A stretch of 42,988 nucleotides of DNA from a virus (IMGVR_UViG_3300045988_149348); one strand, 5' to 3'; positions 3,112 to 42,890 are shown, counted from the stretch's first letter. A program made the numbers and translations. The notes: a model not told the origin generated them from the sequence alone.

Positions 3112-3428
3112 TCTCTAACTCCTATCACAAGTTTTGGCCTAATAAAACCATCAGAAACGTCCGTTCTTTCAAAAGTAACAGAATGGATAATCGCTCTAGG
3201 CTCAAACTCACTAATTTTTTGAATTATTTCTCGTGTTGCTGTAGCAATAAAAATTGGGCTGGGGCTATCAACAAGACTTGAATTAACTCCTAATTTTCTG
3301 GCATATGGTACAGTGCCAATCTGAGTATTAATAATAGTAGAGACATTTTGCAAAACTTCTTCTACAACTGTTTTGGGCGACCAATCAATCGAGTAAGAAG
3401 GTGATGATATGGTAAACGTATTATTCAT
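3108..3428 (-). CDS. baseplate wedge protein, GPW/gp25-like
   Basis: 106 aa, size and position as in P2 gpW / Mu gp46; coupled overlaps with both neighbours. Confidence 0.55.
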   Translation of the reverse strand: MNNTFTISSPSYSIDWSPKTVVEEVLQNVSTIINTQIGTVPYARKLGVNSSLVDSPSPIFIATATREIIQKISEFEPRAIIHSVTFERTDVSDGFIRPKLVIGVRE

Positions 3429-16798: not shown

Positions 16799-18655
16799 CT
16801 ATATGGTTACGCCTTTACTTATAACTCTACGACGTCTTCTACGTATACCTGACGAGTTCTGCACATACACATTACCTCGCATTTCCTGTTCGGCAAGCCA
16901 GTTAAAATTAGGGTTCAGAATTTCCATCGCGGCAGTTGCATAGTTACGGCAATCAAGAGGCTCGTTACGCTCGTAGACTTTCACCCACTTTTCTTTTGTC
17001 TGCCCATTTTTATATTCAAATATTTTTTTCTCTGATAATAATCCTTTAAAGTATTCGGTATCATATCCTCTGTCAGAATCTAATGGGAAATGCATATAAC
17101 CAGGACCAGGATCATGTAGTTTAATTCTTGCCATGATGGTCCCTTTACCATCATCAACCCCCAAATTAAACAACATAGCACCCACACGGTTATTATTACT
17201 TGGCTTTCCTATAAATGGTAAACCTACCCCACCACGCCCCCTGATAGAGTATATTCGCCTTGATTCTCTCGGCTTAGTAAAGCGATATACCTCTGTCGTA
17301 AAATGCCCACCAGAGTCAATACAAACGGAAGAAATCTGTAATTTTCGACCGTCACGGAATGACCAGCTACGGAGTAAGTATTCATCAAGTTGTTTCCAGA
17401 CAACATCTTGTGCGGGATCACCTGGGAATATTTTATATTCTATCCCCCATGACTCCTTACCTTTTCCCCAACCGACCAATTCACAAACTAAATACGTGTC
17501 CTGTACGTCAACACCAGCACTTAACAATAAAACATCATCTGGTAAAAACTCTTCAAACCTTATTCTGCGTTGCAACAAGTATTCAGGATCGATATCGTCT
17601 TTAGCATCCTCTTTCCATGGCTCACCCAGCTTAAGGTTAATAAACTCCATTAATCCATTTTTATCGCGGTTTCTGGTTGCTTCCGTAAATTCTTCAACCA
17701 GCTCTGACAATGCAACCCACGGGGAGTAAAGACTGTTAATATGAAAACCAACAATACCTTTAACTCCAGTATGTTCAGCTATCCATACCCCCTTCGCCAA
17801 CCAATCAACGTCTGGTTTACCAGATCCGCGCATAATCCCGCCGCACTCACAGCACTCATATCTGGCCGTTTCCGGTAACGCCTCACCTGAATCGCTCTTA
17901 TCCCATCTGACTTGCGACCATTTCATCACCTGCATGGTGCCACAACATGGGCAAGGAACATGGTAGTAACGCTGATCGGAGAGCTTAAACCACTTGTGGA
18001 TTTTGCTCGTTTCCTCCAAAACAGGAGTAGAAACAAAAACTTTCTTACGATTATGAAAGTTGGTAGTACGCTGAATACCTAGTTTTAGTGGGTCGCCCTC
18101 CTGCGTCACACCGTAACGATCAATCTCATCAGCTAACAGTATTCGAATTGGCCTGGATGCAAGACCTGCTGGGGAATTAGCACCAACAAGTGCTATATAT
18201 CCACCAGCGTAATGCTTCATACGTATAGTCGTGCTGGACTTTTTGGCTGCACCGCGCCCCTCTTTCCCTTCATGCAGCTTGTGTTTCAAACCAGGGGAAT
18301 ATTTGAACGTCGGATCAATACGCTCCTTTGAAAAAGCCTCAGCCGCCTCTACCGTTGGATAAATCATCAACTGAGGAGATGGCTCCTGATCTGCAAAGTA
18401 ACCCATAACATTTAGCTGTAATTCGGATTTACCAATTTGTGAGCTACATTGCATCACTACTGTTTCTGTATCAGCGTCACCAATAACATCCATTGGTTCA
18501 CGCAAATATGGCACTCGGCTTGTACGCCACGGCCCTGGCTCTGGAGACGTTCCCGGCGCTACATGACGATACTTATCAGCCCATTCGGAAACAGTTAGCC
18601 GTGATTTAGGGCGAAGCGCACGGAAAAAAGCGGTGCTCCATACTGTTTCGCCCAT
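16799..18655 (-). CDS. terminase large subunit, GpA family
   Basis: 618 aa; N-terminal TVSEWADKYRHVA...VMQCSSQIGKSEL pattern as recalled for lambda gpA; cysteine cluster CPCCG...CCECGG. Confidence 0.8.
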   Translation of the reverse strand: MGETVWSTAFFRALRPKSRLTVSEWADKYRHVAPGTSPEPGPWRTSRVPYLREPMDVIGDADTETVVMQCSSQIGKSELQLNVMGYFADQEPSPQLMIYPTVEAAEAFSKERIDPTFKYSPGLKHKLHEGKEGRGAAKKSSTTIRMKHYAGGYIALVGANSPAGLASRPIRILLADEIDRYGVTQEGDPLKLGIQRTTNFHNRKKVFVSTPVLEETSKIHKWFKLSDQRYYHVPCPCCGTMQVMKWSQVRWDKSDSGEALPETARYECCECGGIMRGSGKPDVDWLAKGVWIAEHTGVKGIVGFHINSLYSPWVALSELVEEFTEATRNRDKNGLMEFINLKLGEPWKEDAKDDIDPEYLLQRRIRFEEFLPDDVLLLSAGVDVQDTYLVCELVGWGKGKESWGIEYKIFPGDPAQDVVWKQLDEYLLRSWSFRDGRKLQISSVCIDSGGHFTTEVYRFTKPRESRRIYSIRGRGGVGLPFIGKPSNNNRVGAMLFNLGVDDGKGTIMARIKLHDPGPGYMHFPLDSDRGYDTEYFKGLLSEKKIFEYKNGQTKEKWVKVYERNEPLDCRNYATAAMEILNPNFNWLAEQEMRGNVYVQNSSGIRRRRRRVISKGVTI

Positions 18656-18660
18656 GAGGT

Positions 18661-19221
18661 TTATTCTTCCTGCTTAATAAATCGGGATTCCTGGAGCGCC
18701 TGAAGCGCAAAATTAATCTCGTCTTCAATAATGCGTTCGATCTCCCTGGCTGTTTTGCCTTCACAACGGGGAGCTGCTCTTGGAGCAATACTAAATAAGC
18801 GGCTACGCAATTCATTAGCTGCCAGAAATGCATCATCCCTGACCGCATCTTTAGCGATGAGAGAGCCTTCCTTTTCTTCAAATTCAAGGCGTTTCAGCTT
18901 TGCCTGATAAATTTTTTCTGCGGTCTTAGCCTTGTTGAATTGCACCGCAACACCGGAAGTACCACCAGCTAATCCGGCATCATCAGCGGGTAACTCTGGT
19001 TGTTCCGAAGATATCCCATGCCCTCTTTTTCCATTTTCAGCAGATACCTCACGACCAACCTGTCGGCTCGCTTCATAAGCCGCACTGGCTTTATCAAAAT
19101 CCAGCTTGCCGCTTTTCAGCACTGGAATGCGACCGGAACGACAGAGCTTCGTAACCATTGCCGGAGAAATACCTTTCCGGCGGGCAAACTCTGACTTACT
19201 GACGATGGCCATTACTTGCAA
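18661..19221 (-). CDS. terminase small subunit, Nu1-like
   Basis: 186 aa with N-terminal helix-turn-helix (VSKSEFARRKGISPAMVTKLCRSGRIPV) immediately upstream of the large subunit. Confidence 0.6.
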   Translation of the reverse strand: MQVMAIVSKSEFARRKGISPAMVTKLCRSGRIPVLKSGKLDFDKASAAYEASRQVGREVSAENGKRGHGISSEQPELPADDAGLAGGTSGVAVQFNKAKTAEKIYQAKLKRLEFEEKEGSLIAKDAVRDDAFLAANELRSRLFSIAPRAAPRCEGKTAREIERIIEDEINFALQALQESRFIKQEE

Positions 19222-19802
19222 CCATTAGCAAGATACTGAACAAATCCCTCATGCGTTTCATGCGCGTCGTGGTACTGACGATAAACATCCAGCAACAATG
19301 CAATTTCCATATCCGTCGCGGGAATACGTTCTTTATCAATAGCCAGGTACTTAATTTGAACAACAGGGGAAGAATTATCGTCTTCTTCCTGCGGCTGTTC
19401 ATCGCTTAACATTTCGTCAAGCTCTGCATCATTAAACCCAAGCAGATCAATATCAAAATCATCATCCATTAACTCTTTGACTTCTTCGGCCAGAAGCTGC
19501 ATATCCCAGCCAGCATTTAAGGCCAGCTTGTTATCTGCAATCCTGTACGCCTTCTTCTGTTTTTCAGAAAGGTTACTCAACCGAATCGCCGGAACTTTAT
19601 CCATTTCCAAAATTTCGGCTGCTGCAAGCCGCCCATGCCCCGCAATCAGTTCATTCTTTTCATCGATCAGCACAGGATTAGTGAAACCGAACTCACGGAT
19701 ACTGTTCACCAACTGCTCAACTTGCTCATCTGAATGAGTCCGTGAATTTTTGGCATATCTGAGCAGCTTACCGACTGGTAAATATTCGATTTTTAGAGCC
19801 AT
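19212..19802 (-). CDS. ParB/Srx N-terminal domain protein (paralog 1)
   Basis: 196 aa; NSRTHSDEQVEQLVNSIREFGFTNPVLID...IAGHGRLAAA is a ParB N-domain-like motif; paralog of 22469..23092. Confidence 0.6.
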   Translation of the reverse strand: MALKIEYLPVGKLLRYAKNSRTHSDEQVEQLVNSIREFGFTNPVLIDEKNELIAGHGRLAAAEILEMDKVPAIRLSNLSEKQKKAYRIADNKLALNAGWDMQLLAEEVKELMDDDFDIDLLGFNDAELDEMLSDEQPQEEDDNSSPVVQIKYLAIDKERIPATDMEIALLLDVYRQYHDAHETHEGFVQYLANGCK

Positions 19803-20359
19803 TTTTTAACCGCCATAACACAACAGGTTAAAGAAAACTGTTTAACTTATTGATACTAAAAGAGAAAAATGACGATCTTTTTACTCATAAAGAATCACAC
19901 AAACCAGCATAATCATCTGATTTTATTAAGTTTTTATAAGTAAAAAGGATCTTGCGATGGTTTTTTGGTTAAAAGATTGGATGTATTTGCATGATTTATA
20001 ACGATTTTTATCAGAACAACATCACATTGGTTAAAGATCTGCGCGTATCTTGATGATCTAAAAGAAAATTTTCTACTTTCTTTTTACCAGCACAAGCACA
20101 GCAAAAAATCACGTTTTCCCAATATTTTTCAATGAGATGAGTAAATTTCTTTTACCGCAACTTTTAACCTAACTTTTTTCACGTTTAGCTAGCCGAACAT
20201 CGGGGTTCGAATGACCCGCATCCAACGCTTTTGGCCAGAAGGACCCAATTCTGCCGGACGATGAAACGATGCTCGTGCACCCCCACAGACAGCCTGCGAG
20301 CGACGCTACAGAACACAGTGAATACACTCTGCATAACAACACCATCAACCACACGATGA

Positions 20360-21079
20360 TTAACGAGAGAAGGTCTTAGAAAGAATGTCATCAATAGCCT
20401 TTGTGACTTCATCAGCAAACGCATCCTCACCAGCACGCAGCGCCACGCCATGCCAATCAAGACGCTGCGAATAGTTAGGTTGCTGGATAAACGTAAGGAT
20501 CAACGTAGGACGCCGCCCAACGCGCTGCCAGACGCCTGGTTGAAGCGGGTTACTTGTACCAGGTCGAACAACAAAAAACTCCGTAGGCTTGCCCTGACGG
20601 CGATTTTGATGCGCATCTCGCTGAACTCTTAGGCCAGATAAGACCTGCTGTAATTGCCCCCGCGAAATATTCCCGTATTTGTCCAGCTTTGCGCCGGGAC
20701 CAGGAGCAAGCTGCCAGCCGTTAGGCAAATATCCACCAGCCCTTAGCGCCCCTTCTGAGCGTTTGTACTGTCGTTGGCCACCTTCGATTTGCGGAGTCAA
20801 CGTTACAGGGGCTGGCGTTCCTCCCCATTCACGAGCATACACAATGGCTGTAGGATCACTCTTCTTTGCGGCCAAAACGTAAGTAGAGTTCTGAATCCAC
20901 GGCGTGGGCCTGTCAAATACCCGATTAATTTCATTCTTAATCGCAGCCTGAGAAGCCTTTGCCGTTCTGGTTGCCGCAAGCGCCATTGCGAACGGCAATT
21001 CGCGTTCTTCAAGGCGCTGGAGTTGTCGTTGAATATCCTGAGAAGAAAAATCCATCTTTATCTCAATTCTGTCAGCCAC
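20360..21079 (-). CDS. hypothetical protein
   Basis: 239-aa ORF in the GC-rich block between the ParB-like genes; no recognised motif. Confidence 0.4.
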   Translation of the reverse strand: MADRIEIKMDFSSQDIQRQLQRLEERELPFAMALAATRTAKASQAAIKNEINRVFDRPTPWIQNSTYVLAAKKSDPTAIVYAREWGGTPAPVTLTPQIEGGQRQYKRSEGALRAGGYLPNGWQLAPGPGAKLDKYGNISRGQLQQVLSGLRVQRDAHQNRRQGKPTEFFVVRPGTSNPLQPGVWQRVGRRPTLILTFIQQPNYSQRLDWHGVALRAGEDAFADEVTKAIDDILSKTFSR

Positions 21080-21095
21080 CAGCGCCTCCTACACA

Positions 21096-22475
21096 CTACT
21101 TAATCAACGGCCGGAAAGCCGCCAGCACATCATCAGATCGTCCGATTGTTGAACCACCAGGCAACGGCAACTCAAACTCAAAACGAACAGCTTTCTCCAG
21201 ACTCGCCCAACTAAGGGAATCATCGTTAATGACGTGCAAATACCAGCTCTTACAGTTGAATATTGACCGCTTAATCCTGAAACCATGTACACGACACAAC
21301 TGCTTCACTTCCTCATCAGAGTGAAACTTCTGGTAAAACCAGTGCCCCTTCCGGTACAACGCGGTAAAACCGTTATGATCAATAAAATAAAGCCGGCTTT
21401 TGGAACTCGCCGCTTGTGTCTGCTTCAGGACTGTTTCCAGCTCTCCACGGCTACGGCCAGAAAAGAATATTGACCCACCAGCTTTACACAGCCCTTTCAG
21501 AACCGTCAGAACGGACCATTCAGCCTCGACACTATCGACCGAGTTCAAAACGCTATCGCAAATCACGTAGTCGTAACGCCCTCGCGTTTTTAAGTCGTCC
21601 ACCAGCGTATCAATCATCCGGTTTGTTGCGGTCCTATCCAGAGTGTTTCCAGCGCCCTTACGGCGGAAAAGCTCAAGATCATGCAGGTTATATCCCTTTG
21701 CCCTGAGCATTCGCGCGTAGTCTCCCTGACCCGAACCAAAATCAATTCCTCTTGGCGTCTTGGCAATGATCGGGAGGATCAACGACTCATACAGGTTTGA
21801 TTTCAGGCTGCCACCATTACGCAACCGCATAAGCTGCGCATACGTCTGGATGTATGTTGTTTTCTCCAGATGAGAATACTCAAATACACCATAAGTTTTA
21901 TTCAGATAACTTTGGTATTTTTCCTTCTCAACATCAGGGATCACAAACACCGTTAGCGGTGTGCGCGTCATCTTCGCTGCTAATGCATACTGAGCACAGT
22001 GAATAACCTCGCCAGACTGCGTAGCAACACAACCACCCCACGGACCATACTTGATAACCAGTTCCGCTATGTTCTTTCGAACATATGCCATTTTCGCGCG
22101 CATATTGCCTGAGATCTGGCTTGCCGATACCTGAACAAAACCATGCTTATCTTCCAGACCTGACACCCTGCAACGCTCATCTCCGCTGTCAAAATCCGTT
22201 CCGTTATGCAGTTGGTTAAACCGTACTTCGTCGTATACCGTCGTTTCACAGGGCAACACATACACCGCAGCACGCGTTATTCCCAACTTACGTAGCGCCT
22301 TCGTCCTTTGGTGTCCCGCCACCAGCAAATCGCCGCGCACTATCAATGGCTTCACAAGCCCCAGCTCCCTGACGCTTTCCGCCAGCCTCGCAAGATCATC
22401 CTCACCGATAAAACGCGGGTTATATTCCGCGCCGCGTAGGTGCGTTATGTCGTAATTGAGATGAAGCATCAGCAC
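21096..22475 (-). CDS. ParB N-domain / class I SAM-dependent methyltransferase fusion protein
   Basis: 459 aa; N-terminal ParB-like motif (PLIVRGDLLVAGHQR); C-terminal Rossmann methyltransferase motifs (GIDFGSGQGDY, LHDLE, YDYVICDSVL); no DPPY-type motif seen. Confidence 0.55.
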   Translation of the reverse strand: MLMLHLNYDITHLRGAEYNPRFIGEDDLARLAESVRELGLVKPLIVRGDLLVAGHQRTKALRKLGITRAAVYVLPCETTVYDEVRFNQLHNGTDFDSGDERCRVSGLEDKHGFVQVSASQISGNMRAKMAYVRKNIAELVIKYGPWGGCVATQSGEVIHCAQYALAAKMTRTPLTVFVIPDVEKEKYQSYLNKTYGVFEYSHLEKTTYIQTYAQLMRLRNGGSLKSNLYESLILPIIAKTPRGIDFGSGQGDYARMLRAKGYNLHDLELFRRKGAGNTLDRTATNRMIDTLVDDLKTRGRYDYVICDSVLNSVDSVEAEWSVLTVLKGLCKAGGSIFFSGRSRGELETVLKQTQAASSKSRLYFIDHNGFTALYRKGHWFYQKFHSDEEVKQLCRVHGFRIKRSIFNCKSWYLHVINDDSLSWASLEKAVRFEFELPLPGGSTIGRSDDVLAAFRPLIK

Positions 22476-23092
22476 ACCTCCCCAGCCAGCAATGCGGATA
22501 CAAATCCGATATAGCTGCCATTATCATCAACATAACGAGACACCGCGCAGTCAAAACGATCCGCTTCCTCATCCGTTGCCGGGATTTTATGACCTCCAAA
22601 TGACAGGTACTGAACTTTTACGCCTGATTTGGCCTCATCCTTCTCAAATGGGATATCCATACCCTCTGTGTCATCGTAGACCGCCGCACTCAATAAGTTA
22701 TCCAGTTCGCGCTGAGTAAAACCAATTGAGTCCAGAGCAAAATCATCGGCCGCAAGATCTGCAAGCTCCGCGCTTAACAACTCTTCATCCCAACCAGCAT
22801 TCAGCGGAATACGGTTGTCGGCCAGACGATATGCCTTCTTCTGATTCTCCGTTAGCCCTTCCAGAACAATGCAGGGAACGTCATCCATCCCCAACTGAGT
22901 GGCCGCAGCAATTCGACCATGACCAGCAATTACAACGTTGTTCTCGTCTATCAGGATCGGATTAGTCCATCCGTACTCCTGTATGCTGGCAACAATCTGA
23001 TCTACCTGCTCCACGGAGTGTGTGCGAGCGTTCTTTTCATAACCAATCAACACAGAAAGTGGTAAAGAAACCACATTAAGATGTTTTGTCAT
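22469..23092 (-). CDS. ParB/Srx N-terminal domain protein (paralog 2)
   Basis: 207 aa; NARTHSVEQVDQIVASIQEYGWTNPILID...IAGHGRIAAA; shares the C-terminal KIPATD motif with paralog 1. Confidence 0.6.
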   Translation of the reverse strand: MTKHLNVVSLPLSVLIGYEKNARTHSVEQVDQIVASIQEYGWTNPILIDENNVVIAGHGRIAAATQLGMDDVPCIVLEGLTENQKKAYRLADNRIPLNAGWDEELLSAELADLAADDFALDSIGFTQRELDNLLSAAVYDDTEGMDIPFEKDEAKSGVKVQYLSFGGHKIPATDEEADRFDCAVSRYVDDNGSYIGFVSALLAGEVC

Positions 23093-23214
23093 GCCGTTTA
23101 TCCGCTAAAATCCCCTCGCTTGTGCAAGCAAGTGGGCCTCGGTTTGTATCCACGGCACCCTGTGGGTATGAATGACTGTCGTCAGGTCGCAACTGACGGC
23201 GGGTGAGAGTGAAT

Positions 23215-23290
23215 TGGTGGCCCCTACCGGATTTGAACCGATGACCGTGCGATTATGAGTCGCCTGCTCTAACCACTGAGCTAAGGGGCC
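23215..23290 (-). tRNA. tRNA with CAU anticodon (Met or Ile2/lysidine type)
   Basis: 76-nt cloverleaf folded by hand: 7-bp acceptor stem, GCTC/GAGC D stem, anticodon loop CUCAUAA, T loop TTCAAAT, 3' CCA encoded. The 5' 42 nt match E. coli ileX-type tRNA as recalled. Confidence 0.8.
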
Positions 23291-23459
23291 ATATTTGATC
23301 TGTTTGTCTGGTGTGGCGCCGCGCACGAAAATCCCAGCCAATAAATTCAGGATTTTTGGGCGCGGCGGCATATCAGACAAACATGGTTGATGCGTGCGCC
23401 CATGAGAAAAGCGCATAGAATGTTGTAACTATATATTTATATAATTATAGAAATATATA

Positions 23460-23669
23460 TTACTTGGGGCAGTTGATTTCCCATGCCCTGTTATGAGCCA
23501 GAATATCTTTCTTTGTCTGGCGGTCCATAACATCGATATCGTGATCAGTCAGGTAGATGGGCTTTACCCAATCACAGGCGGTATCAACCACCACCGGGAC
23601 GCTTCCACGACTCCCGCAGCTCGCGATCAACATCGTCATCAGCCATATGGTTAACACTCTGCTGTACAT
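23460..23669 (-). CDS. o-spanin, Rz1-like lipoprotein
   Basis: 69 aa with lipobox LIASC; overlaps the 3' end of the Rz-like gene in another frame. Confidence 0.55.
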   Translation of the reverse strand: MYSRVLTIWLMTMLIASCGSRGSVPVVVDTACDWVKPIYLTDHDIDVMDRQTKKDILAHNRAWEINCPK

Positions 23670-23862
23670 TCCCCACCTCTTTTGTCACTTCTATACGCCG
23701 CTCCGCAGTGGCTTTTACGGCGGCTGCATTCTCATTAATGCGCTGCTTTTCAGCTTCATCTTCGGCCTTTTCTCGCCCCTTCATACGACCAAAACCAAAC
23801 GCACCGAATGCAACCAATATAACGGTGCCGATAAATGACAAAACGGCTTTCAAACCAGTCAT
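23584..23862 (-). CDS. i-spanin, Rz-like
   Basis: 92 aa; N-terminal transmembrane segment then charged coiled-coil; directly downstream of the endolysin. Confidence 0.55.
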   Translation of the reverse strand: MTGLKAVLSFIGTVILVAFGAFGFGRMKGREKAEDEAEKQRINENAAAVKATAERRIEVTKEVGNVQQSVNHMADDDVDRELRESWKRPGGG

Positions 23863-24401
23863 ACCACCACTCGCTCTTTCATCCAGCCGTAGACAAACGA
23901 CTCATTAGCCTCGCGCTTCTCCGCCAGCTCCAGATAGCGTTCGCCCTGCGTACAGTTCAGCGACGTCAGCATCACCCGTTCGCCGTCTTTTCCCCGATTC
24001 CCAAGATAAGCACGTAGCGCATTAATGGTACGTGGACCGATTCGTCCGTCTGCATCCAAATCGGGATACAGCTTCCCGCGCAGGTTGAACACATTCAGCC
24101 AGCGTTGAAGCATTTTTGACGCCACTGTTGGCCCCATGTTCACCCCCGTGTCACACAGCTCTGCGGCAATATCAGAGGATAATGCGGCCACCTGATCAAA
24201 GCGTGGTCCGTACCAGTAATCAGCCTCAAGGATTTCCAGTGCCTGTTCGCGGGTTAAATCGCGCATATCGCCACGGTATCCATGAGCACGGGCAGTGTTC
24301 TGAGTAATGCCCCACTTTGTTGGGCCTCCCTTGTCGTCAGGGTGATCCACATAGCCGCCCTCTTTTCCAAGAACGCTGTTAAAAATCTCATCTTTGGTCA
24401 T
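23859..24401 (-). CDS. endolysin, GH108-type muramidase with peptidoglycan-binding domain
   Basis: 180 aa; N-terminal EGGYVDHPDDKGGPTKWGIT motif as recalled for glycoside hydrolase family 108 lysins. Confidence 0.7.
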   Translation of the reverse strand: MTKDEIFNSVLGKEGGYVDHPDDKGGPTKWGITQNTARAHGYRGDMRDLTREQALEILEADYWYGPRFDQVAALSSDIAAELCDTGVNMGPTVASKMLQRWLNVFNLRGKLYPDLDADGRIGPRTINALRAYLGNRGKDGERVMLTSLNCTQGERYLELAEKREANESFVYGWMKERVVV

Positions 24402-32005: not shown

Positions 32006-32662
32006 ATGAAAAGCAACGACGAGAACATCAAGAAAGAAATAGGTCTGCGCATTCAGACTCTACGGAAACAATCCGGCATGACTGCCGGAGATCTCCAGCA
32101 AGTCACTGGAATAGGCTTAAGCACCTTGCAGAACTATGAGGCCGGATTAAGACAACCATCTATACCTGCCATCAAGAAAATCGCGCACGCCCTGAAAGCA
32201 TCAGCGCCTTATATCGCGTGCTTAACAGATAACCCGTTCCCACCCCAGAATACTAACGCTCCTGTTATTCCTGGGCTTGTAGCTATAAAAAATGACATAG
32301 CATCGCACGCCGGAGAAAAGCCAGTGCTGGCGATAGAACAGGAGATTCTACGAAGCAAGAACATCAACCCATCGTCTCTGTCAGTTCTCCAGAGCAACGA
32401 TGAGTTAATGTCACCAACAATATCCCCTGGCTCCCAAGTCCTGATTAATACAGACGATACAGAGATTCATGAGGGGATCTATGCCCTTGAAGACAGAAAT
32501 GGCCTGGTTGTTTTGAGGCACTGTAGAGTCATACCGGGTGACAATGCTGTTATGCTGTCAACCGAAAGGGATGCTGAAATGAACACTAAGCATCTGAATA
32601 ACGAGGAATTTAAGCGTTATAAAGTTCTTGGCCGCGTAGTTAGTGTTGTCAACTGGTTATGA
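32006..32662 (+). CDS. CI-like repressor (HTH_XRE N-domain + LexA/S24-like C-domain)
   Basis: 218 aa; N-terminal helix-turn-helix (LQQVTGIGLSTLQNYEAG); C-terminal ELMSPTISPGSQVLIN aligns by eye with the S24 GDSMxPxIxxGDxVLVD motif. Confidence 0.7.
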   Translation: MKSNDENIKKEIGLRIQTLRKQSGMTAGDLQQVTGIGLSTLQNYEAGLRQPSIPAIKKIAHALKASAPYIACLTDNPFPPQNTNAPVIPGLVAIKNDIASHAGEKPVLAIEQEILRSKNINPSSLSVLQSNDELMSPTISPGSQVLINTDDTEIHEGIYALEDRNGLVVLRHCRVIPGDNAVMLSTERDAEMNTKHLNNEEFKRYKVLGRVVSVVNWL

Positions 32663-33264: not shown

Positions 33265-33933
33265 ATGGAGTCTCGACAAATGACTATCTCTGTAGGTATT
33301 TTCAACGGAAAAGGCGGCGTAACCAAATCAACAATTGCCCGTGCTTTAGCAGTTGCTTATGCAAAGGCTGGCTGGAATGTATGCCTGATCGATATGGATG
33401 TGCTTAACGGAACGGTAACGCGTTGGGTACAACGCAGAATGGCCAACAATATCGAACCAGCAATCGCGGCGCAGCCGTGCGGCACACCATCACAAGTCCA
33501 GAAAATCATCGAATCAGAAGTATACGACCTGGTTATCGTTGATGGCGGTGCCTACGCATCTGAATCAGTACCGAAGCTATCTGAATTTCTGGATATGGTT
33601 ATTTTGCCAACCCGATTCTCTACCGATGACCTGGAAACCACCGTTAACACTGCTCACGGCATCGTTAAAAAGGGTGTGCCAATCAAGAAAATTTGCATGG
33701 TGTTTTCCGGCGCGGCTGAAAATGAAGCTGACTATATTGAAGCCCAAGAGTACCTGGCTAATACGCCATACTTTGTTGTCGATAAGTACATTCCCCACAA
33801 GCCAGCTCTGAGCAAAGCTCAGGATAAGGGCTTAAGCCTCATTGAATGCTCATACGTTGCGCCACGCAAAAAGGCAGACGACGTTATTCAGGGGATTATC
33901 AACCAGCTTGAGGCTCTGACTACTGCCGCGTAA
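33265..33933 (+). CDS. ParA-family partition ATPase (small, type Ib-like)
   Basis: 222 aa; deviant Walker A GKGGVTKST near the N-terminus; followed by a small ribbon-helix-helix-like gene; AT-rich repeats upstream. Confidence 0.7.
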   Translation: MESRQMTISVGIFNGKGGVTKSTIARALAVAYAKAGWNVCLIDMDVLNGTVTRWVQRRMANNIEPAIAAQPCGTPSQVQKIIESEVYDLVIVDGGAYASESVPKLSEFLDMVILPTRFSTDDLETTVNTAHGIVKKGVPIKKICMVFSGAAENEADYIEAQEYLANTPYFVVDKYIPHKPALSKAQDKGLSLIECSYVAPRKKADDVIQGIINQLEALTTAA

Positions 33934-41174: not shown

Positions 41175-42023
41175 TTAATGTTGGAGTGATTTCCAGGTCT
41201 TTCTTAACCTGTTATAACGCTGCTCAACGAGGGATCGTAAATATGCAAGGTCAGCACCTGGATACATGCCATCAGCAAATTCCTGACTAACCTCTCTAGT
41301 GATTTGATGACGAAGTTCGGCCTCTCCCTTTTCCTGAACAAGACGCGCAGCTCTCTCCGCTGCTTTCTGTTTTGCCTTTATCTCTCTGGCCGTCTTCCTC
41401 TGACGCCATACATTCTCCATCTGCTCCTGAATAACAATACGCTTATAATCAGCCTCCGTTATCGCTTTTTTAAGCCGTTCGCTATTCTTCGCATTGAAGT
41501 AATTAAGTTTCTGGCTAACCGCACGTCTCCATGCTTGTTCAGTAATACCAACGGTTTCCAGCAGTTGATCACGAATCTCTATTTTCGCTGGCCAATACTG
41601 TTTATTCACCCGATCCCAGCGACGTTCATAATCAATAAAACCTAACGCTTTCAGTTGCGACAACGCCCTTGTACAGCGCGTTATAGACTTGTTCCCAGCT
41701 TCGGATACGGTAGACAGGCCGCAAAAATCAGCCAACGCCTCAGCACTAGCCAGAACCCGCTTAGAAATGATGTTTACATGGTGCAAAATCGCAGCGATCA
41801 CAGCATTAATCGCCCGACGACGATGCTCGTTTATCCGGCGCTTCCGCTCTGACGGTTGATTAACGTAGAACGCAACCTCACACGTAAGATCACGCCCATT
41901 AATGCGCTGTAAAGCATCAGATAACACCAGCGGCAGCTTGTGCGTATGGTGCTTTGGAGGCTGGAACTCCGGCGACAAATTACAAACGTAAGCTGAACGT
42001 AGAGACGGCATTGGTCTATCCAT
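41175..42023 (-). CDS. repA: plasmid replication initiator RepA, IncFII RepA1-like
   Basis: 283 aa from ATG 42023; CGLSTVSEAGNKSITRCTRALSQLKALGFIDYERRWD matches the RepA1 core motif as recalled. The ORF track's longer form (to 42185) starts at a TTG. Confidence 0.75.
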   Translation of the reverse strand: MDRPMPSLRSAYVCNLSPEFQPPKHHTHKLPLVLSDALQRINGRDLTCEVAFYVNQPSERKRRINEHRRRAINAVIAAILHHVNIISKRVLASAEALADFCGLSTVSEAGNKSITRCTRALSQLKALGFIDYERRWDRVNKQYWPAKIEIRDQLLETVGITEQAWRRAVSQKLNYFNAKNSERLKKAITEADYKRIVIQEQMENVWRQRKTAREIKAKQKAAERAARLVQEKGEAELRHQITREVSQEFADGMYPGADLAYLRSLVEQRYNRLRKTWKSLQH

Positions 42024-42067
42024 ATGTTCGCTCTTGCGTCCACGGAAAACCAACGTATAATGGGAGT

Positions 42068-42148
42068 TGTCGATGCGCCCATGGATATTGTTGTTGGTTT
42101 TCCGTGGATGTCGCAAGAAGCCCGCAGATTTATCTGCGGGCTTTTTGT
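42068..42148 (+). ncRNA. candidate CopA-like antisense RNA (countertranscript to the repA leader)
   Basis: Plus-strand promoter TTGCGT-16-TATAAT (-10 at 42056..42061); stem-loop CCAUGGA/UCCGUGG; terminator GCCCGCAGA-TTTA-TCTGCGGGC plus TTTTT (42120..42146); lies 45-125 nt upstream of repA on the opposite strand. Confidence 0.55.
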
Positions 42149-42190
42149 TTCCATATCTGGTCACTTTCCAACCAGACACCCACAATCATA

Positions 42191-42335: not shown

Positions 42336-42890
42336 TCAATGATTCCCAGCCGGAAACCTGCGGTAAAGCGTGGATAAGGTAACATCGAAGATAATCGCTA
42401 TCCGCTTACGTGAAACACCATTCGCAATAAGCCTTCCGATCTGTTCCCATTGCTCTGGTGCCAATTTTGAGCGGCGTCCTCCTATCCTGCCGTTAGCCCT
42501 TGCCACCGCCAATCCTGCACGCGTTCTTTCAATCATATTTTCCCGCTCCATCTCTGCGACTGCACTCAGCATCGTGTAGGCAAAGCGGCCAATTGAAGTG
42601 CTAATTTTTATCCCTTCCGTAATCGAAATAAACTCAATGTTGTTTGATAAAAAATAGTTAAGTAAATCAACAAGATGAATCAGAGAACGCCCCATTCGGT
42701 CCAGCTTCCAGACAATAACCGTATCGCCCGGCCGTAACACCTTCAGTAGCTTATCAAGTCCTGGTCGTTTTGATTTAGCACCGGATATTTTATCTTCAAA
42801 AATCCGGTCACATCCTGAACTCCTGAGCGCTTCCAGTTGTAATTCCAAATTCTGGTCAAAAGTTGACACCCTCGCATAACCATATTGCAT
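42336..42890 (-). CDS. serine recombinase, Gin/Hin/Cin-family DNA invertase
   Basis: 184 aa; YARVSTFDQNLELQ catalytic-serine motif, VWKLDRMGRS, C-terminal GRIGGRR...LSTLYRRFPA helix-turn-helix; closely parallels Gin as recalled; gix-like site about 65 bp upstream. Confidence 0.8.
   Translation of the reverse strand: MQYGYARVSTFDQNLELQLEALRSSGCDRIFEDKISGAKSKRPGLDKLLKVLRPGDTVIVWKLDRMGRSLIHLVDLLNYFLSNNIEFISITEGIKISTSIGRFAYTMLSAVAEMERENMIERTRAGLAVARANGRIGGRRSKLAPEQWEQIGRLIANGVSRKRIAIIFDVTLSTLYRRFPAGNH

Follow-up and report, generated by a model that had tools for sequence, protein, structure and literature searches.

An optional ParB-methyltransferase gene pair upstream of the terminase genes of an Escherichia coli phage-plasmid

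We analyzed a 42,988-nt stretch of DNA from the virus IMGVR_UViG_3300045988_149348 (hereafter the window) and focused on positions 19212 to 23092, where all genes lie on the minus strand. A preliminary description had reported here two small ParB proteins (ParB-A and ParB-B), a ParB domain fused to a class I S-adenosylmethionine (SAM) methyltransferase, and a 239-residue protein, and the four minus-strand open reading frames (ORFs) that it described proved correct in position (Table 1). They are not one gene cluster, as it had supposed, because a noncoding gap containing the cos site splits the 239-residue gene from ParB-B. The span consists of three separate units around cos, namely, ParB-A together with the fusion, the 239-residue gene, and ParB-B, and the host of these units is a temperate myovirus living as a 48-kb plasmid. 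The first unit is a real, conserved, and widespread phage cassette. Its combination of ParB and Methyltransf_23 domains was already catalogued in 2025, and its anatomy and genomic context are clarified here.

The position of cos was obtained from the termini of near-identical phage genomes deposited in the databases. The genome of Yersinia phage vB_YpM_41 starts with GGTCATTCGAAC followed by CCCGATG, and the genome of vB_YpM_44 ends in GGTCATTCGAAC and starts with CCCGATG. Because this 12-nt stretch stands at opposite ends of near-identical genomes, we infer a 12-nt cohesive end, GGTCATTCGAAC (minus strand), at positions 20205 to 20216 of the window. Such an end fits a GpA-type terminase, and with a GpA-type TerL and defined cohesive ends beside terS, the region has the makeup of a lambda-type cos packaging module. 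Given this position, ParB-A, the fusion, and the 239-residue gene end the right arm of the genome in the virion, and ParB-B opens the left arm. Of the 15 copies of the heptamer GGTTAAA in the whole window, five lie within 365 bp (19805 to 20169) separating cos from ParB-B, and these five are candidate TerS (cosB) sites.

ParB-A and the fusion recur as neighbors. Among the 65 IMG/VR fusion loci with upstream sequence, 64 have an ORF of at least 120 residues ending beside the start of the fusion. Nearly all of these partner ORFs match the small-ParB profile, and in the few exceptions the ParB gene lies one gene farther upstream. A TerL gene follows 0.4 to 3.6 kb downstream of the fusion in about 59 of about 68 loci, and the TerL proteins belong to at least three unrelated families (GpA, 23 loci; Terminase_3/6, 31 loci; other family, 5 loci). 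The same ParB-fusion-terminase layout is found in Pfam-annotated contigs, and ParB, fusion, TerS, and TerL are consecutive in Bacteroides phage BS-TP3. The fusion family ranges over Enterobacterales, Alphaproteobacteria, Bacillota metagenome-assembled genomes, Chloroflexales, Pirellulaceae, Chlorobiaceae, and Bacteroidia, and it is present in 7 of 50,697 cultured-phage records. On the chromosome of Bradyrhizobium barranii (L132, 4690 to 7404), an opposite-strand ORF lies between ParB and the fusion and no terminase is found within 6 kb; this copy may be a decayed prophage remnant or a domesticated one.

The pair is optional. In IMG/VR, 17 to 18 close relatives with TerL proteins 87 to 99% identical have the 239-residue gene, the cos gap, ParB-B, TerS, and TerL and have neither ParB-A nor the fusion; from this absence, we take ParB-A and the fusion to be an accessory cassette. 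In one cassette-free relative (L141), the backbone is 97.6% identical, and the sequence from position 3112 onward aligns to positions 21191 to 18000 of the window. What is left of the fusion gene, ahead of the 239-residue gene, is its last ∼95 nt, where the homology starts, and this remnant looks like a scar of deletion or recombination. Of the complete E. coli genomes, 72 have the backbone and 71 have the cassette, which is thus nearly fixed in the E. coli plasmid lineage.

The reading of the fusion as a ParB-N domain plus a SAM methyltransferase, with the motifs GIDFGSGQGDY (residue 243) and LHDLE (residue 264) and without DPPY, was borne out by Pfam and motif searches. Pfam places ParB_N at residues 9 to 70 and Methyltransf_23 (PF13489) at residues 233 to 400 (32.6 bits; cutoff, 27), and residues 3 to 459 match positions 1 to 457/458 of PHROG 5475 (E, 2.4e-265). 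The Pfam score, a Rossmann-like fold, a motif I of the form GxGxG, and a beta-2 strand that ends in an acidic residue together place the C-terminal domain among the class I SAM methyltransferases. An AlphaFold2 (AF2) model of the fusion has a predicted local distance difference test (pLDDT) score of 93.6 and a predicted template modeling (pTM) score of 0.90, and the folds nearest to its methyltransferase domain are small-molecule, tRNA (METTL6, Trm9, and CmoB-like), and mRNA cap guanine-N7 methyltransferases. A search of a large database with the fusion returned 716 clusters, nearly all of them full length and 45 to 99% identical. In an alignment of 50 sequences, YNPR, AGHQR, FNQxHNGxDxD, GxWGG, HxxQY, YGxFxY, DFGxG, E268, R272, DxVxNSxD, R341, FxD, and GxWFxQxxH are invariant. 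The enzyme looks active and strongly constrained: DFGxG, E268, and D307 do not vary, and family members in Enterobacterales, Alphaproteobacteria, and Chloroflexales share 45 to 99% identity. The middle domain (residues 98 to 232; 135 residues) is conserved and basic. In the AF2 secondary structure, residues 112 to 179 repeat the strand and helix order of the ParB domain (residues 4 to 73); hhalign comparison between the sub-alignments of the two segments found nothing. A second, degenerate ParB domain in tandem is therefore unproven, as profile searches with residues 98 to 232 were also empty.

ParB_N is the sole domain found in ParB-A and ParB-B, both of which match the ParB/Srx profile (PF02195). 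The two are paralogues, as had been noted before (48% identity; E, 1e-61), and the ParB domain of the fusion is more distant from them (33% identity over 51 residues). Box II reads AGHGR in the small proteins (residue 56 in ParB-A and 54 in ParB-B) and AGHQR in the fusion (residue 53), while Box I reads NAR, NSR, and NPR in ParB-A, ParB-B, and the fusion, respectively; the Box I and Box II arginines of the nucleotide pocket are retained in all three domains. The small ParBs are most closely related to the first ∼150 residues of phage DNA methyltransferases (PHROG 498; E, 4e-52), with 58% identity to the N terminus of the methylase of phage P8625. The PADLOC model for Type II methyltransferases (MTase_II) is matched through its ParB module only (E, 2e-40), with ParB-A covering the N-terminal ∼150 positions (E, 6e-38). 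An NCBIfam search returned nothing specific. In both ParB-A/fusion (TGATG) and ParB-B/TerS (TAATG), the stop codon of an acidic ParB overlaps the start codon of a basic partner, and each pair is translationally coupled.

Several described systems share parts of this architecture. A survey of ParB-CTPase folds (Kaljevic et al., PNAS 2025; PMC12704722) found Methyltransf_23 (PF13489) and N6_N4 methyltransferase domains among the commonest phage and prophage fusions, called the domain a "predicted DNA methyltransferase," reported that ParB-SAM-methyltransferase fusions bind ATP in vitro, and suggested anti-defense roles; a function was not given. Its architecture agrees with the fusion studied here in having the same two Pfam domains in identical order and in its enrichment in prophages; the proteins tested there (uvig_65837_18 and UBA3002) may belong to this exact fusion family. 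The obligatory stand-alone ParB partner, the conserved middle domain, the terminase linkage, and the optionality of the cassette are absent from that account. With the survey cataloguing the architecture and PHROG 5475 labeled "unknown function," the preliminary description was right that the role had not been established, and the options that it listed (DNA or nucleotide modification, anti-restriction, and packaging) are still the live ones.

The phage orphan ParB-N6_N4_Mtase proteins (PHROG 498), such as Verrucomicrobia phage P8625 gp03 and Streptococcus phage Javan316 gp24, have a ParB module homologous to the small ParBs (up to about 58%) and fill in other phages the same slot as the cassette, right upstream of terS/terL. 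They combine ParB and a DPPY-type amino-methyltransferase in a single polypeptide, whereas here the homologous ParB stands alone and the enzyme has its own divergent ParB domain, a middle domain, and a class I methyltransferase that is not of the DNA type. In the 5mYOX system (O'Toole et al., PNAS 2026; PMC13229309), a small phage ParB lacking a DNA-binding domain switches on the thymine dioxygenase with which it is paired, specifically on double-stranded DNA, where the enzyme requires it for activity, and mutation of the nucleoside triphosphate (NTP)-binding residues of this ParB did not abolish activation. ParB-A is like the 5mYOX ParBs by description, being a small protein with a nucleotide-binding domain and no recognizable DNA-binding domain, encoded next to a modifying enzyme, but the 5mYOX partner is an iron/2-oxoglutarate dioxygenase without a ParB domain of its own and the partner here is a methyltransferase with one. 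The doublet of a ParB_N-only protein and a ParB_N-effector fusion is also found in the Type IV restriction system GmrS1/GmrSD2 (Silas et al. 2025; PMC12373910). This analogy is formal only: unlike the cassette, GmrS1/GmrSD2 is a host defense with an HNH nuclease effector and a ParB-like domain of the DUF262 branch. Further, an earlier proposal, quoted in PMC8256090, has ParB directing DNA-modification machinery during packaging.

Taken as a whole, we tentatively explain the three units as a ParB-guided DNA-modifying cassette, a neck or tail-completion protein of 239 residues, and a ParB-B that works with TerS. On this view, ParB-A and the fusion make up a horizontally mobile cassette of two genes that is optional and closes the late operon. 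The acidic ParB-A and the basic fusion would be produced together and may associate through their nucleotide-binding ParB domains, and the pair could then serve as a DNA-associated methyltransferase under NTP control, modifying phage DNA after its replication and just ahead of its packaging by the terminase. The cassette would thereby correspond, in noncanonical form, to the ParB-N6/N4 DNA methyltransferase fusions found in this slot in other phages, and the modification might protect phage DNA or mark it for the next host. ParB-B, made with TerS, probably assists the terminase-cos complex. The link to DNA methylation is drawn because the small ParBs belong to the family that forms the N-terminal module of phage DNA methyltransferases.

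It is important to note that a number of observations weigh against this explanation. The amino-methyltransferase motif (D/N/S)PP(Y/F/W/H) is absent from the fusion and from 50 homologues, the PCQ and ENV motifs of C5-methyltransferases are absent from the fusion, and the methyltransferase fold is a generic class I match and not that of DNA amino-methyltransferases. The fusion also has no Pfam matches to PF01555, PF02384, PF05063, or a C5-methyltransferase family. An ordinary N6/N4 or C5 DNA methyltransferase is thus ruled out by motifs and fold, and the possibility for which the preliminary description had allowed, that of an ordinary N6/N4 enzyme, did not materialize in the HMM, motif, and fold checks. 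Domain searches recognized no DNA-binding domain in ParB-A, the fusion, or ParB-B, the small ParBs are strongly acidic, and a Pfam and PDB profile search with residues 98 to 232 of the fusion found no sequence relatives. Moreover, the position before the terminase genes could simply mirror the layout of the late operon or an insertion hot spot, and NTP gating is not assured, since mutation of the NTP-binding residues of the 5mYOX ParB did not do away with activation.

Fold comparison alone neither favors nor excludes DNA as the substrate of the fusion. A substrate other than DNA is nearly as likely, because the catalytic domain resembles small-molecule and RNA methyltransferases and no DNA-binding domain is visible. 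Under this alternative, which in its full form we consider somewhat unlikely, the enzyme would act on a free or signaling nucleotide, on RNA or tRNA, or on protein, the ParB/Srx domains would be NTP-binding or regulatory parts, and the pair would serve as an anti-defense or host-takeover accessory in a late cargo slot. Besides the nearest folds and the missing motifs, it has in its favor that binding of ATP, GTP, or CTP is a property of the ParB fold, which also works in enzymes, Srx and SerK among them (PMC12704722), and that the cassette is optional and lies in a variable slot by a tRNA gene and, in relatives, cargo genes. It does not account well for the tight and wide linkage of the cassette to terminase genes of several families or for an obligatory partner whose family supplies DNA methyltransferases with their N-terminal module, and late expression would be ill suited against defenses that act early.

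ParB-B is a backbone gene of the terminase operon, a paralogue that was recruited to it or retained there. It is present in all close relatives, including the 17 to 18 without the cassette. In Vibrio phages X29 and vB_VpaM_R20L, the gene order opens with a homologue 59 to 62% identical to it and continues with TerS, GpA-type TerL, adaptor, portal, and Clp protease. Vibrio phage phi 2 gives the same match to ParB at the left end of its genome, and none of these three phages is among the seven fusion-carrying phage records.

Such a setting is what would be expected if the ParB proteins were packaging cofactors, that is, nickases or NTP-driven clamps that act at cos or pac with TerS and TerL in the manner of the cos-adjacent HNH proteins in HK97-like phages, with the methyltransferase modifying cos-proximal DNA or a component of the terminase or portal. 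ParB-B comes first after cos, is coupled to TerS, and is never missing from the backbone; the fusion-free Vibrio phages keep the order ParB, TerS, and TerL (GpA) at the left end, and the fusion lies upstream of TerL in most loci. DNase and NTPase activities are described in ParB-like domains, including a ParB-methylase with nicking activity (Iyer et al.; PMC5512222), and HNH genes beside cos and terminase genes are described as common (PMC3592412). A search of the literature on ParB-like nucleases that work together with TerS yielded nothing specific. As an account of all three ParB proteins, we regard packaging assistance as improbable: ParB-A and the fusion are dispensable in 17 to 18 relatives with near-identical terminases, the cassette is found with cos-type and other terminase families alike, and GpA-type TerL has its own nuclease domain. 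For these reasons, this alternative fits ParB-B better than the cassette.

A joint reading would have a hetero-complex of ParB-A and the fusion close in a nucleotide-dependent manner on the concatemeric DNA fed to the terminase and install a methylation other than N6-adenine, N4-cytosine, or C5-cytosine (such as one on a ring nitrogen, on the backbone, or on a premodified base), with ParB-B as a third subunit of some GpA-type terminases. In this full form, we consider it decidedly unlikely; if true, it would represent a new class of ParB-guided phage DNA modification across many bacterial phyla. ParB-fold proteins are emerging as general nucleotide switches well beyond chromosome segregation, and phage ParB fusions have been flagged as a large unexplored set. 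To this, we add a fusion that is always paired with a stand-alone ParB, precedes terminases of any family, and is dispensable, in an E. coli phage-plasmid of the reference strain ATCC 25922 that has natural cassette-free relatives. If DNA is the target, the cassette would provide a new phage DNA modification relevant to restriction evasion, to host range in phage therapy, and to methylome studies by sequencing; with a target other than DNA, it would represent a new use of the ParB switch.

The 239-residue protein, whose fold may be of the HK97 gp10 type, probably serves in the virion neck or in tail completion. In Pseudomonas phages MD8, F10, and JBD68, a homologue is the final gene of the genome (gp67 in MD8; L083, 6469 to 7212), and on a metagenomic contig a homologue (L090, 5001 to 5726) lies directly upstream of Phage_Nu1 and GpA. 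In such lambda-type cos phages, the family is labeled "minor tail protein" without evidence. No ParB or methyltransferase genes were found beside the homologues in these three phages and the contig. Because the family holds the position before cos in phages without ParB and methyltransferase genes, the protein stands outside the ParB-methyltransferase module, and its membership in a common biochemical module is ruled out. We read it as a late virion protein that belongs with the lambda-type packaging and head module, its family accompanying cos and the Nu1/GpA terminase and not ParB. It differs from the HK97 gp10 family in being twice as long, in having no Pfam match, and in the location of its gene, which lies at the far right end of the genome by cos and not among the head-tail joining genes.

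The preliminary description had treated the surroundings as a phage late region only, but the element is a phage-plasmid with its own replication and partition module. The region is 99% identical to Escherichia phage vB_EcoM-613R2 and to Yersinia phages vB_YpM_39, 41, and 44, and ∼48-kb plasmids 99% identical to it occur in 72 of 5,426 complete E. coli genomes, including that of ATCC 25922; 78 of the 79 matching places in these genomes are on plasmids. The window encodes an IncFII-type RepA, a separate ParA-type ATPase, a serine resolvase/invertase, and an XRE repressor, all 10 to 20 kb from the ParB genes. Yersinia phages vB_YpM_39, 41, and 44, which over this region are 99% identical to these E. 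coli plasmids, were grown on Yersinia pestis EV76, implying either a host range over two genera or an E. coli origin of the isolates.

Since the phage-plasmid has its own RepA and ParA, the three ParB proteins are unlikely to be partition proteins. That they are centromere-binding partition proteins or KorB-like silencers of late genes is a very remote prospect, even though the element is a plasmid in 71 to 72 E. coli genomes and carries RepA and a ParA-type ATPase, and the ParB fold includes partition proteins and KorB (PMC11790492): the ParA gene lies more than 10 kb away and is followed in the ATCC 25922 plasmid by a small gene of its own, the same genes occur at the terminase in integrated prophages and nonplasmid phages, and the ParB genes lie inside the late operon. 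The three proteins have in common with the canonical ParABS ParB (TIGR00180) the N-terminal ParB/Srx fold and the Box I and Box II arginines, but their TIGR00180 scores (31, 16.4, and 40.1 bits) fall below the cutoff of 58.45, no helix-turn-helix family was found, the ParA-binding motif (L/F/I)G(K/R)G(L/F/I) is absent from all three, and no parA is adjacent, which rules out partition as their main role.

The features of the region are listed in Table 1.

Table 1. Features in and around the ParB-methyltransferase span (window coordinates)
Feature	Position	Strand	Remarks
TerL, lambda GpA type	16799..18655	-	GpA_ATPase, E 7e-76; GpA_nuclease, E 1e-84
TerS, isoelectric point (pI) 9.1	18661..19221	-	Likely ATG at 19212; PHROG 57, E 7e-42; weak N-terminal helix-turn-helix-like match
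ParB-B, 196 residues, pI 4.5	19212..19802	-	PF02195, 33.7 bits, over the cutoff; PHROG 620, E 5e-75
cos region, noncoding, 557 bp, 37% GC	19803..20359	.	Contains no ORF of at least 62 residues
239-residue basic protein, pI 10.1	20360..21079	-	Possible HK97 gp10-like fold; last right-arm gene
ParB-methyltransferase fusion, 459-residue ORF	21096..22475	-	457 residues if the start is the likely ATG at 22469
Fusion residues 1-97, ParB/Srx domain	about 22185-22475	-	
Fusion residues 98-232, conserved middle domain of unknown kind	about 21780-22184	-	
Fusion residues 233-459, class I SAM methyltransferase	about 21099-21779	-	
ParB-A, 207 residues, pI 4.3	22469..23092	-	PF02195, 24.8 bits; PHROG 620, E 3e-74
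tRNA, CAU anticodon	23215..23290	-	ARAGORN; directly upstream of ParB-A; left edge of variable accessory-gene slot
GH108 endolysin	23859-24401	-	Domain search
XRE repressor	32006-32662		
ParA-type ATPase	33265-33933		
IncFII-type RepA	41175-42185		
Resolvase/invertase (serine)	42336-42890		

In the direction of transcription, the order is endolysin and holin, tRNA(CAU), ParB-A, the fusion, the 239-residue ORF, the 557-bp gap, ParB-B, TerS, and TerL, which agrees with the lysis and packaging flanks originally reported (the GH108 endolysin on one side and TerS with GpA-type TerL on the other). The GC-rich block that had been described with these flanks holds for the three right-arm genes, whose GC content of 49.7% (rank 16 of 403) matches that of the adjacent lysis genes. 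It does not hold for the span as a whole (46.9%, against 44.4% in the window; rank 111 among 392 stretches of equal length) or for ParB-B (43.5%), and the gap is at 37%. Scans of the region for promoters and terminators gave fewer matches than in shuffled sequence.

In Escherichia phage vB_EcoS-673R7 (L089, 3989 to 5705), a 263-residue ParB, 61% identical to the N-terminal part of ParB-B, is followed by an unannotated 310-residue protein, both encoded between the lysis genes and terS, and the two may represent another variant of ParB plus enzyme in this slot. The tRNA upstream of ParB-A is a tRNA-Met (anticodon CAT) according to ARAGORN and a tRNA-Ile in the RefSeq annotation of the ATCC 25922 plasmid; it may be a lysidine-dependent tRNA-Ile2. 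A 103-residue ORF that overlaps it (23105 to 23416) is probably spurious. The interval between this tRNA and ParB-A is a variable accessory-gene slot, with extra genes amounting to 2.8 to 3 kb in relatives. It measures 122 bp in the window (region 23093 to 23460), contains four ORFs in Yersinia phage vB_YpM_44 (L002, 2888 to 5982), and is filled in the ATCC 25922 plasmid (L082, 31562 to 34517) by ∼2.9 kb of cargo that comprises an MT-A70 family methyltransferase and five small ORFs.

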